A stretch of DNA of 64,000 bases from Mobula hypostoma (Eukaryota), in the NCBI RefSeq assembly GCF_963921235.1, contig NC_086097.1, forward strand, positions 70,434,001 through 70,498,000, given 5' to 3'. Position 1 is the first letter of the stretch, and each line of letters opens with the position of its first letter. The notes under the pieces are model-generated. The model worked only from the letters and a program-made list of their open reading frames with translations. It did no database searches and was not told where the DNA came from. A program made the position numbers and the translations under genes. Positions 2,397 to 63,135 of this stretch are shown in pieces.

Positions 2397-2691
2397 TGCC
2401 CCACCTCCCCCTCGTACCCCATCTGTTATTTATTTTTATACACACATTCTTTCTTTCTCTCTCTCTCTTTTCTCTCCCTCTGTCCCTCTAACTATACACC
2501 TTGCCCATCCTCTGTGTCCCCTCCCTTGTCTTTCTCCCTGGGCCTCCTGTCCCATGTTCCTCTCATACCCCCTTTGCCAATCACCTGTCCAGCTCTTGGC
2601 TCCATCCCTCCCCCTCCTGTCTTCTCCTATCATTTTGGATCTCCCCCTCCCCCTCCCACTTTCAAATCTCTTACTAACTCTTCCTTTGGTT

Positions 2692-11911: not shown

Positions 11912-13220
11912 ATTTGAATATTACAATGATTGAATACTTTGAGGATGTGACTAACCACATTGATGAAGGAAGAACAGTAGATGTAGTGTATATGGATTTC
12001 AGCAAGGCATTTGATAAGGTACCCCATGCAAGGCTTATTGAGAAAGTAAGGAGGCATGGGATCCAAGGGGCCATTGCTTTGTGGAACCAGAAATGGCTTG
12101 CTCACAGAAGGCAAAGAGTTGTTGTAGACAGGTCATATTCTGCATGGAGGTCAGTGACCAGTGGTGTGCCTCAGGGATCTGTTCTGGGACCCTTATTCTT
12201 CATGATTTTTATAAATGACCTAGATGAGGAAGTGGAGGGATGGGTTAGTAAGTTTGCTGATGACACAAAGGTTAGAGGTGGTGTGGATAGTGTGGAGGGC
12301 TGTCAGAGGTTACAACGGGACATTGATAGAATGCAAATCTGGGCTGAGAAGTGGCAGATGGAGTTCAACTCAGATAATTGTGAAGTGACATACATCAAAG
12401 TTGCTGGTGAACGCAGCAGGCCAAGCAGCATCTATAGGAAGAGGTGCAGTCGACATTTCAGGCCGAGACCCTTCGTCAGGACTGTGAAGTGAAGTGGTTC
12501 ATTTTGGTAGGTCAAATATGATGGCAGAATATAATATTAATGGTGAGACTCTTGGCAATGTGGAGGATCAGAGGGATCTTGGGGTCCAAGTCCATAGGAC
12601 ACTCAAAGCAGCTGCGCAGGTTGACGCTGTGCTTAATAAGGCATATGGTGTATTGGCCTTCATTAGTCGTGGAATTGAATTTAGGAGCCGAGAGGAAATG
12701 TTGCAGCTATATAGTACCCTGGTCAGACCCCACTTGGTGTACTGTGCTCAGTTCTGGTCGCCTCACTACAGGAAGGATGTGGAAGCCATAGAAAGGGTGC
12801 AGAGGAAATTTACAAGGATGTTGCCCAGATTGGGGAGCATGCCTTATGAAAACAGGTTGAGTGAACTCGGCCTTTTCTCCCTGGAGCGACGAAGGATGAC
12901 AGTCAGAGGCTTTTTCCCAGGGCTGAAATGGTTGCCACGAGAGGACACAGGTTTAAGTTGCTGGGGAGTAGGTACAGAGGAGGTGTCAGGGGTAAGTTTT
13001 TTACTCAGAGAGTAGTAAGTGTGTGGAATGGGCTGCTGGCAATGGTGGTGGAGGCGGATACGATGGGGTCTTTTAAGAGACTTTTGGATAGGTGCATCGA
13101 GCTTAGCAAAATAGAGGACTATGGGGAAGTCTATTAATTTCTAAGATGGAAACATGGTCGGCACAACTTTGTGGGCCGAAGGGCCTGTATTGTGCTGTAG
13201 GTTTTCTATCTTTCTATGTT
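11912..13220 (+). mobile_element. 5'-truncated CR1 LINE nested in an opposite-strand CR1
   Basis: DFSKAFDKVPH, GVPQGSVLGP, FADD, VRPHLVYC; TTCTATGTTT tail. Confidence 0.92.
12388..12483 (-). mobile_element. 96-bp Penelope-derived hammerhead+tail unit inserted in CR1 RT
   Basis: Minus strand begins AGTCCTGACGAAGGGTCTCGGCCTGAAATGTCGACTG; flanked by GTGAAGTG at 12380-12387 and 12484-12491; interrupts CEV|VHFG. Confidence 0.9.
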
Positions 13221-19085: not shown

Positions 19086-19129
19086 AAAAATCAGCTGGGA
19101 AGCTAATAAGTAACAGATTCTGTACATTT

Positions 19130-19310
19130 AACACACACAAAATGCTGCTGGAAATCAGCAGGACAGGCAGCACCTAAGGGGTGGAATACACTGATGAAGG
19201 GTTTCAACTGTTTATTCCTCTCCACTAATGCTGCCTGACCTGCTGAGTTCCTCCAGCACAGAGTATAGTTTATTCTGGATTTCTACCATCAGCAGAATCT
19301 CCTCAGTTTA
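19130..19310. mobile_element. Penelope-end mini-palindrome with collapsed hammerhead core
   Basis: Two inverted tails around CTGATGAAGGG; imperfect TSD AGATTCTGTACATTT (19115-19129) / AGATTCAGTACAGTT (19311-19325). Confidence 0.75.
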
Positions 19311-21618: not shown

Positions 21619-21813
21619 CCAACAAGAGAAAATCTGCAGATGCTGGAAATCTGAGTAACACACACAAAATGCTGGAGGAACTCAGCAGGCCAGGCAGCAT
21701 CTGGGAAAAGAGTACAGTCGATGTTTTGGGCCGAAACCCGTCAGCAGTCAGACTGTACTCTTTTCCTAGATGCTGCCTGGCCTGCTGAGTTCCTCCAGCA
21801 TTTTGTGTGTGCT
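21619..21813. mobile_element. Penelope-end mini-palindrome centred on one degenerate hammerhead
   Basis: 61-bp arms 21659-21719 / 21751-21811 with 1 mismatch; TSD core TTGAAATTCAG at 21605-21615 and 21817-21827. Confidence 0.88.
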
Positions 21814-21882
21814 ATGTTGAAATTCAGCCGTGCTTATCCCCTTCTGCAGGCTAAGGGGCCATCTGAACCCGAGGAAACCTTT

Positions 21883-25687: not shown

Positions 25688-25782
25688 CGATGAAGGGTCT
25701 CGGGCCAAAACATCGACAGTTTACTCTTTTCCATAGATGCTGCCAGGCCTGCTGACTTCCTCCAACATTTTGTGTGTGTTGC
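25688..25782 (+). mobile_element. 95-bp Penelope-derived hammerhead+tail unit
   Basis: (C)CGATGAAGGGTCTCGGGCCAAAACATCGACAG...TTTTGTGTGTGTTGC; exact 12-bp TSD TTAACATATTCC at 25676-25687 and 25783-25794. Confidence 0.88.
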
Positions 25783-26854
25783 TTAACATATTCCTGTTAG
25801 ATTTCATGTCCTTGCCCTGCCCAGGTAGCTTCCAGTTAATGTAGGCATTGATATTGGGGAAATTCTGCTGTGATGAATAGACCCTTTACACATTTGTGGA
25901 TCGTGTTGGTCGTGTGCGTAATGGGACCATGGGATGGTTCAGTCAATAATGGGAGGAGCATATTGCTGCCCAATTCCCAGAAACTAGCTGTCTGCATATC
26001 AGAGCATCTTGAAATGTTCAAATGATTATGTTTGTCCTAATGGCAGGATCCATATAATTAAAACTTCATTTTTCAATGCAGATACTTGAAGGGGAAAAAA
26101 AAGCCTCAAATTGCAAATTAATGAAATCACACAAATGAACATACACATCTCGATGCATGACCTAGAAAATTAAAAATTTACTTTTCAACGTGTTGGCACT
26201 AAAACAGATATCAGCAGCTTGTAAATGTAAATGACTAAATTCGCACAGTGATGTATGCATGTTCATAGTATGACCCAGTAAACGTGGCTTCAGATATTGG
26301 GTGGTCCCAAAGGAATCTAAAATGAATGTCCTTGGCCTGAATTATACTCATGTTTTGATGGCAGTTTCTGTACGCTGCAGTGCAGAAGCCAGAGTCGAGC
26401 TGGAGGTCAGCTGCCTGCATACAGCATCTGTTCTCCTGTGCCACTGCACGACTCAGACCTGAATTCCTGGTCAGGGCACAAATATGGTGAACGGAGGAGC
26501 AAGATGCACTTTCCATTTCTCTGGGGAATCATCTCTCAGTTCTGTCATGAGGCTGGGCTTGGTTCTGGATCTAGGACAATGGAAATTATTGGAGAAATGA
26601 TTAGTGGGCAAGGCAAAGATAGATTACATTTTAAAATTCTTAAATTTTGCTTTTTTTAATAAATGTTCTAAGTATTTCAACTAATTTTTTTTATTTAAAT
26701 CTGTAATAAATTTTAATGTCATGAAATGATAAAATAATATATTTCTGTTTAAACTGGAAACCTGCAGGTGGGTCCTATTTGCAGAGAAATAAAGCATACA
26801 TACTTGTACTACATACATACTTTGATAATAAACTACTTCGAATTCTTTGAGTTC

Positions 26855-61724: not shown

Positions 61725-63135
61725 TCACTCAGCAGATCAGGCAGCATTGGTTGGAGAAAAGGATTTGCTGATGTTATGAGTCAATATCCTGAATCTGGTG
61801 TGAGTGTGGAGAGCAAAGATTGTGGGTAAAATAAAGGGGAGGGGTAGAGGAAAAGACAGGTGGGGTAGGTGGACTGAGGAGAGCTGTGGGATGCTGGAAA
61901 GATGGAGGCAGGTGGAGAGAGGGAGGGGTGGAACTGGGTGACAAAGAAAGGTGGGTGATAGGTGGAAGCAGACAAGGACAAACAAGAGGCAGATGGAGCT
62001 TGAGGATGAACTATGGAGACAGAGGCCAGAAGATGGTAAATTGAGTCATAGAAGCTACAAGACCTAGAATTTGATGATGCAGGAAGGTGATAATAGGAAC
62101 CATTTAAGGGAAAAGGTGAAGGTCAATTGAAACCAGATGGAAGAGGAGATATGGCGCTGAAGTCTGCAGGTAGTAGATGGATCCAAGAGTGGGAGCTGGA
62201 TAAAATGGGTTAAGAGGGACTTGGGGAGGACGGTTTATGAGAAAGAGAAAACATAAAAGGACTATAGGTAGATTGGAAGGCAAGAGAGATGGAAACACAG
62301 GAGAAAATAGAAATGGAAAATGGAAAATTCAACGTTTATATTTTTGGTTACAGGCTACCTAGCTGAAATATGAGGCAACACACATCAAAGTTGCTGGTGA
62401 ATGCAGCAGGCCAGGCAGCATCTCTAGGAGGAGGTACAGTCGACGTTTCAGGTCGAGACCCTTCATTGGGACTAACTGAAGGAAGAGCTAGTAAGAGAAC
62501 TGAAAGTGGGAGGGGGAGGGGGAGATCCAAAATGATAGGAGAAGACAGGAGGGAGAGGGATGGAGCCAAGAGCTGGACAGGTGACTGGCAAAAGGGATAT
62601 GAGAGGATCATGGGACAGGAGGCCCAGGGAGAAGGAAAGGGGGGGGGAACCCAGAGGATGGGCAAGGGGTATAGTCAGAGGGACAGAGGGAGAAAAAGGA
62701 GAGTGAGAGAAAGAATGTGTGTATATAAATAATGGATGGGGTACGAGGGAGAGGTGGGGCATTAGCGGAAGTTAGGGAAGTCAGTGTTCATACCATCAGG
62801 TTGGAGCCTACCCAGACGGAATATAAGGTGCTGTTCCTCCAACCTGAGTGTGGCTTCATCTTTACAGTAGAGGAGGCCGTGGATAGACATGTCAGAATGG
62901 GATGTGGAATTAAAATGTGTGGCGTTGTGTTTTCAGTTTGTGTGAGGCCTCACCCTGGCTTTGGAGAAGACTGAGGATGGGCGGGTGTGGAGAGCCAATG
63001 TAACAGGCATAAAGAAGAGAAGGGGAGGGGTGAGACAGTGGAATAAATTGGAAAGGTGGAGTGTGGCGTGTGCGAGATGCTGGTCAGGAGGATCCAGGTG
63101 GAGAGAAGGAGGGGTGGAGTTGGGAGACAAAGGGA
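61725..63135 (-). mobile_element. Old Penelope-like element (61725-62374 and 62925-63135) interrupted by a younger one
   Basis: CAGCAGATCAGGCAGCAT end, purine-rich UTR, degenerate GIY-YIG C-terminal sequence on both sides of the insert. Confidence 0.6.
62375..62924 (-). mobile_element. Penelope 3' fragment, same family as 654-1215, with mutated hammerhead (CCAAUGA)
   Basis: Close match to 654-1215. Confidence 0.9.

Follow-up and report, generated by a model that had tools for sequence, protein, structure and literature searches.

Within the window, the whole 64,000-nucleotide stretch of Mobula hypostoma DNA analysed here, a 96-bp piece resembling the end of a Penelope-like retrotransposon lies inside the RT region of a LINE, which we take to be of CR1 type from its RT motif rather than from a family search. 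The insert and its surroundings comprise the following features:

11929 to 13220, plus strand: 3' fragment of the host CR1-type LINE with the recurrent Penelope target (window self-matches and reading frame).
12380 to 12387, plus strand: target-site duplication (TSD) copy at the 3' end of the element, GTGAAGTG, single in the restored CR1 frame.
12388 to 12483, minus strand: Penelope end-piece of 96 bp, element positions 0 to +95.
12388 to 12446, minus strand: sequence from the hammerhead to the putative first priming site (~+97), placed by the bimodal 3' ends of 249 copies.
12447 to 12483, minus strand: minimal type I hammerhead, predicted from the sequence and the motif given in the accessible text of PMC4209133.
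12484 to 12491, plus strand: TSD copy at the 5' end of the element, GTGAAGTG.
12492 to 12496, plus strand: five extra bases, AAGTG, a partial re-copy of the target, from the sequence.

The initial annotation described this locus as a 96-bp insert with its own TSD and an extra AAGTG inside the CR1 RT, and both the sequence and the restored frame agree with it, the CR1 RT frame WQMEFNSDNCEVVHFGR being regained once the insert, one TSD copy and the five extra bases are removed. Junction additions like AAGTG are frequent among short copies, as seen in a junction listing, and 18 of 25 short solo copies have duplications of 11–18 bp, longer than the 8-bp TSD here. All relative coordinates below take the first A of helix I (window 12483) as position 0. 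The insert was said to start exactly at helix I, which is nearly right: helix I of the family opens one base earlier, with a U at -1 that is replaced in the insert by a target-derived C. The insert is 92–95% identical to the window copies at 656–751 and 2692–2787 and 89% identical to that at 62378–62473, and differs from the family majority at four positions over +8 to +94. These comparisons indicate that it is a short end-piece of an abundant Penelope-like retrotransposon and no separate mini-element. A 26-base tail word of this element has 85,845 exact copies in the 3.48-Gb genome, and the insert itself is a single dead copy out of about 100,000; it is likely a dead end because what lies downstream of the priming site is missing from it.

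On the minus strand the insert presents, in order, AGUC (5' strand of helix I), the core CUGACGA, a 4-bp stem II, GAAA, UGUC and GACUG (3' strand of helix I), with cleavage predicted after window position 12452 (+31). The two-base centre of helix III is UG in the insert and CG in most family copies. The previously noted AUGU in place of ACGU at stem III was confirmed; it is a CpG-type change present in both short and long copies (2/72 and 5/91, respectively), and a 39-base word carrying it occurs 883 times in the genome, with 10 of the 29 other such copies examined being long. Local folding of the insert strand recovers helix I and stem II. A search of the insert against Rfam at the gathering threshold gave no match and the whole 97-nt strand folded no better than shuffled sequences (z +1.0), and the hammerhead call therefore rests on the conserved letters, which match the minimal motif in the accessible part of PMC4209133. 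The same text reports that Penelope pseudo-LTRs carry minimal hammerheads, mostly solo, which it ascribes to truncated elements.

Further copies are present elsewhere in the window:

654 to 2826, both strands: head-to-head pair of long young-family copies, with the ~+97 half on the minus and the ~+134 half on the plus strand, and a 14-bp duplication.
25688 to 25783, plus strand: second short unit, from a more diverged Penelope family, starting within the catalytic core, with a 12-bp duplication.
62365 to 62923, minus strand: third long young-family copy by sequence match, 5' end near -463.

The unit at 25688 had been put forward as a same-sized counterpart of the insert. It is a real insertion with its own duplication, but at 77% identity it belongs to another, more diverged family, and its start lies in the core instead of at helix I. 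At 19129–19296 and 21621–21828 the window also has short pairs, joined head to head, from more diverged Penelope families.

A complete unit of the parent element between two hammerheads measures 3,511 bp (locus L036). Its single ORF combines RT with a C-terminal GIY-YIG domain, as in EN+ Penelope-like elements; this is supported by a 679-aa stop-free stretch (L123) that scores E=2.5e-5 for RVT_1 and E=6e-4 for GIY-YIG, both below the Pfam cut-offs, with the motifs visible. Other EN+ Penelope-like features are likewise found, namely a pseudo-LTR partial tandem, an inverted 5' copy and an optional 30–40-bp tail (L036, the pairs and the two 3' end classes), together with a minimal type I hammerhead in the pseudo-LTR, predicted from core letters and helices. 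The linker just before GIY-YIG, CKRNKCYTC, reads CX4CxxC and falls within the CX2-5CxxC RT-EN linker that the accessible text of PMC8557442 gives for Neptune and Nematis; on these sequence features the parent element looks Neptune-like. The ORF has its first in-frame AUG near +170, beyond the tail, and a word at +210 occurs at only 851 places in the genome, ~1% of the tail-word count. Four long copies (L184, L198, L311 and L337) share an internal duplication (+807 to +1018) that marks a sub-lineage.

The distribution of 5' ends was determined in 249 copy halves found by tail-word matches (≤2 mismatches) at loci picked through 3' words or through their position. Most of this sample stems from the first 17 Mb of one contig; L001–L030, L051–L080 and L162–L200 were left out, having been chosen on 5' sequence (350-base query, variant pattern or ORF-start query). 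Stops upstream of -30 occur at an even rate of 0.0009–0.0015 per base. Between -3 and +10, 67 of the 201 halves at risk stop, a rate of 0.024 per base or ~20 times that upstream, in per-half counts corrected for ten endpoints that are small internal deletions. Counted per insertion, without this correction and with three such endpoints lying near the peak, 46/140 stop at helix I against 3.2 expected (p about 1e-36). The pile-up is also seen in solo copies (18/88, or 0.015 per base), in a genome-wide set from the CR1 hot spot described below (13/40 copies) and among other copies with the variants of the insert, 19/29 of which have their 5' end within -13 to +9. A plot of 5' endpoints had been proposed in the initial annotation, with a sharp peak at helix I to count in favour of its proposal; the peak is there, yet it is ~14 bases wide rather than one, with its sharper edge near -3 and shoulders to -30 and +30. 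At the cleavage site no peak of 5' ends appears (4/228 in +31 to +33). Apparent position-0 starts in more diverged families were left uncounted, since in part they reflect the point at which resemblance to the young family is lost. At the helix I of their 5' repeat, near-full-length copies stop within -4 to +10 in 6 of 38 cases at risk (2/17 in the unbiased subset); most pass it, and many templates therefore start further upstream.

The 3' ends of the same 249 copies fall into two classes, at ~+97 and ~+134, and these classes are strictly combined in head-to-head insertions. Both halves end at the tail in 73 of 92 inverted insertions, and in 72 of these 73 a +97 half is joined to a +134 half. 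The 5' ends of paired halves correlate (rho 0.57), six of 23 long pairs having 5' ends within 30 bases of each other versus 0.5 by permutation, and the halves agree at 316/344 variant sites versus 57% when shuffled. With both halves long in 16 of the 72 pairs, the stops of the two halves are not independent (Fisher p=9e-10). The available text of PMC3846280 accounts for inversions by self-priming on an antisense template. Here, neither half contains the other in 34/72 pairs, and one is therefore not a fold-back copy of the other. We infer that priming was of the twin type, either on a single RNA or on two RNAs that came from one source and shared the same end.

Self-tandem insertions provide a second view of template ends. 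A sense jump, from a 5' end to a downstream position and then on to a 5' end again, is present in 22 of the 48 unbiased loci with the +210 word, these being part of a jump set of 78 loci. Among the 30 loci listed, 15 have one 10–17-base duplication around the whole jump insertion and four lie at a locus edge. Pooling both samples and leaving out two loci (a duplicate and one of another kind) gave 28 self-tandems, in which the second round passes the first 5' end in only 2/28 versus 6.1 expected (p=0.002, permutation) and stops within five bases of it in 8/28 versus 1.5 expected by permutation; on inspection, one of the two passing cases (L327) is an alignment overshoot and a ninth equal case. 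The shared ends lie at varied positions (-122, -92, -24, -15, -12 and 0), and a pause at one fold therefore cannot explain them, nor does a closed circle predict them. A stop exactly at the junction also argues against circles; in L301 and L347 a third round repeats the same junction twice, which a circle would give as well. Six jumps leave from -4 to +1 on RNAs reaching 647–1661 bases into the ORF, which would place the start of those RNAs at helix I and their priming close to the front. Most other jumps create 280–490-base units landing at +256 to +381, the lower edge being partly set by selection on +210 to +233. None of the jumps in the set lands where cleavage would end an RNA (+31); two land at +37/+38. 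Jumps recur from about -123 to -137 (L304, L317, L307 and L308) and from -71 (L320 and L321), which may mark additional 5' ends of the RNA. One-insertion 280–490-bp hammerhead self-tandems, as in L301, L304, L314/L315, L323, L345, L347, L349 and others, resemble newborn retrozyme dimers.

We consider it probable that the insert is a run-off product, made by internal priming near +97 on a linear, uncleaved RNA beginning at helix I. Nicked target DNA would prime RT inside the RNA at ~+97, as in the insert, or at ~+134, and RT would copy on to the 5' end of the linear uncleaved RNA, an RNA beginning at helix I thus giving a unit of 96 or 135 bases. At the RNA 5' end RT would join the target, in many cases adding a few bases, to leave a short unit, or would alternatively jump to an RNA 3' end and copy again to leave a self-tandem; head-to-head pairs would form where a single RNA is primed at both sites, each by one strand of the target. 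The earlier proposals that the insert was moved by Penelope protein and that its template was uncleaved at this ribozyme are both supported. The RNA end most likely stems from transcription starting at the first A of helix I, which is our first choice. The initiator consensus is YYANWYY, and position 0 fits it perfectly, by eye also in more diverged families; because the motif occurs eight times in the 460 bases from -320 to +140, this match is weak evidence. The accessible text of PMC2377424 describes an internal promoter in the pseudo-LTR of D. virilis Penelope. A close second would be 5'-to-3' trimming halted at a folded or protein-bound hammerhead. A wider scheme, which we put forward tentatively and hold to be less likely than its opposite, would bring together a linear RNA starting at the hammerhead, near-front priming on both target strands and a jump from its 5' end to an RNA 3' end: the 96- and 135-base units would be integrated "strong-stop" products as known from LTR elements, and the same jump would create the 280–490-bp tandems in one step, giving birth to animal retrozymes without circular RNA.

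Several other explanations of the 5' boundary were weighed against run-off at an RNA end. Pausing or release of RT at the hammerhead fold, or at a protein-held site, on long templates agrees with the stop rate of long-bodied copies, which is raised at their 5' repeat too (0.0105 per base), and with three of the 23 long pairs, in which the +97 half stops at +1, +2 or +11 and its partner continues, as a pause would give. We nevertheless regard a pause as unlikely, as RT stops on the far (5') side of the fold and not at its first contact with helix I (+36), the fold has no unusual stability (z +1.0), the stops of paired halves are not independent, and repeated stops occur at arbitrary shared positions, which shows that template ends set the stops in general; furthermore, an anole protein reads through its own hammerhead in vitro (PMC11167929, available part). 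The strong RT stop at the ribozyme fold that had been offered as an alternative thus fits less well than run-off. A splice-related end, with a 3' splice site just before helix I, is more improbable still. A pyrimidine tract and YAG do precede helix I, by eye also in more diverged families, a few 5' ends lie at -15 to -11, near a possible branch point, and in D. virilis the intron ends at helix I according to the accessible text of PMC4209133, but 0/99 copies stopping near helix I have a shared upstream exon, the sole upstream join is not at a GT donor and the jump junctions are not at splice donors. Element positions -22 to -3 (window 2670–2691 and 752–775) hold a branch-like word, a pyrimidine tract and CAG at -5 to -3, and are possibly a conserved 3' splice site. 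Ordinary random 5' truncation would account for the flat stop rate of about 0.001 per base upstream of -30 and for short and long copies being interspersed; as a full account it is refuted by the pile-up at helix I (46 stops versus 3.2 expected, p about 1e-36), and we give it practically no weight.

The remaining rival, close to what the initial annotation had favoured, is an independent non-autonomous family, retrozyme- or SINE-like, of ~96–135 bases, itself transcribed and copied by Penelope protein. Copies are many and of near-fixed size, and 18 of 25 short solos have duplications of their own, as is equally expected of any single insertion. Comparison of 67 short with 80 long copies over +8 to +94, an alignment of 87 bases with limited power, revealed no column with p<0.05 among 15 variable columns and hence none of the diagnostic variants expected of short copies. 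Short and long copies share the same haplotypes, diverge equally outside CpG (2.3% vs 2.4%) and do not cluster by nearest neighbour (p=0.19), one of the results named beforehand as speaking against a separate family; six of the ten closest relatives of the insert are long and four short. In addition, a 96-base RNA would lack the +134 site used by partner halves. Nor is the insert ribozyme-bounded in the retrozyme sense, because it starts 32 bases before the cut: non-LTR retrozymes are tandem hammerhead units of ~150–450 bp whose limits are set by cleavage, while the insert is a solo 96-bp unit and 5' ends peak at -3 to +10, not at +32 (4/228). A SINE-like family would show a lineage of its own as well as its own TSDs, and only the latter are found (18/25 short solos), the comparison of 67 short and 80 long copies over 87 bases having shown no lineage of their own. 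An independent family is thereby largely refuted already, and we hold it to be highly improbable. Annotators should be wary of assigning every fixed-size hammerhead unit to a SINE or retrozyme family.

The parent resembles EN+ Penelope-like elements of the Neptune type, as far as these are covered in the accessible text of PMC8557442 and PMC3846280, in its ORF with RT and C-terminal GIY-YIG, its CX2-5CxxC linker, pseudo-LTR partial tandems, adjacent inverted copy, optional 30–40-bp tail and target duplications. Those descriptions include truncation and inversion, but no helix I pile-up, strict pairing of 3' classes or self-tandems with repeated 5' ends. A biochemical parallel in the available part of PMC11167929 is the anole Poseidon element PAc, whose protein in vitro uses two internal RT start sites, reads to the template 5' end and accepts uncleaved RNA; start sites about a tail length apart, extension of both target strands and a hammerhead just upstream are further likenesses. 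PAc differs in belonging to the Poseidon clade, in having been studied in vitro and in an ORF that starts at stem II, versus near +170 in the present element, and genomic 5' ends, twin pairs and template jumps fall outside its treatment in that text. The minimal hammerheads of PMC4209133 share the motif, with a palindromic 15.2–16.2 and an extra base before stem II; the accessible text proposes cleavage and circular templates, whereas in our data the ends keep away from the cut site and for the most part look like those of linear templates. Metazoan non-LTR retrozymes (PMC7229834; bioRxiv 10.64898/2026.07.22.740005; both as far as available) are alike in their type I hammerhead, origin from Penelope pseudo-LTRs, lack of an ORF and likely movement by Penelope protein. 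They are tandem 150–450-bp units processed from cut to cut, unlike the solo 96-bp insert with no lineage of its own, and the 280–490-bp self-tandems elsewhere in the genome come closer to them.

Solo minimal hammerheads from truncated Penelope elements, inverted ends, tails, internal priming and the Penelope origin of retrozymes are already published, as the accessible texts of these papers attest (PMC4209133; PMC8557442; PMC3846280; PMC11167929; PMC7229834; bioRxiv 10.64898/2026.07.22.740005). A literature search, conducted mostly without subscription papers, figures and preprint supplements, found no helix I pile-up of 5' ends, strict +97/+134 pairing or self-tandems with repeated 5' ends. 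Such probable run-off copies ending at helix I give a rare view of how Penelope elements copy themselves, and the pattern bears on the open question of how their pseudo-LTRs, tails and inverted ends form, and on the origin of animal retrozymes. These genomic data predict that the RNA has a 5' end at helix I, that a single RNA can be primed at both start sites and that RT jumps between templates from end to end.

The target of the insert is itself recurrent. Its 3' junction (window 12379–12407) occurs 49 times genome-wide, compared with 0 for a control, and all 40 copies fetched (L351–L390; L198 is another) have the CR1 3' flank with differing 5' ends, and are therefore separate events at one CR1 base. 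This hot spot is a single base in the CR1 RT region, at the C-E-V codons and on the opposite strand; a rough chance estimate for such junctions is <0.1, from a 9-mer frequency of 2e-5 and tails ending there in 4/135. A tail-like target flank was considered as its cause and is unsupported (126 flanks, p=0.75).

Two further arrangements were observed in individual copies. In L367, and in L134 near 8166, the hammerhead alone is duplicated by a jump from ~0 to +37/+38, which is the base of helix I and not the cut site. In L165, near 5639, element position -503 is joined directly to -1 via a 3-base overlap.
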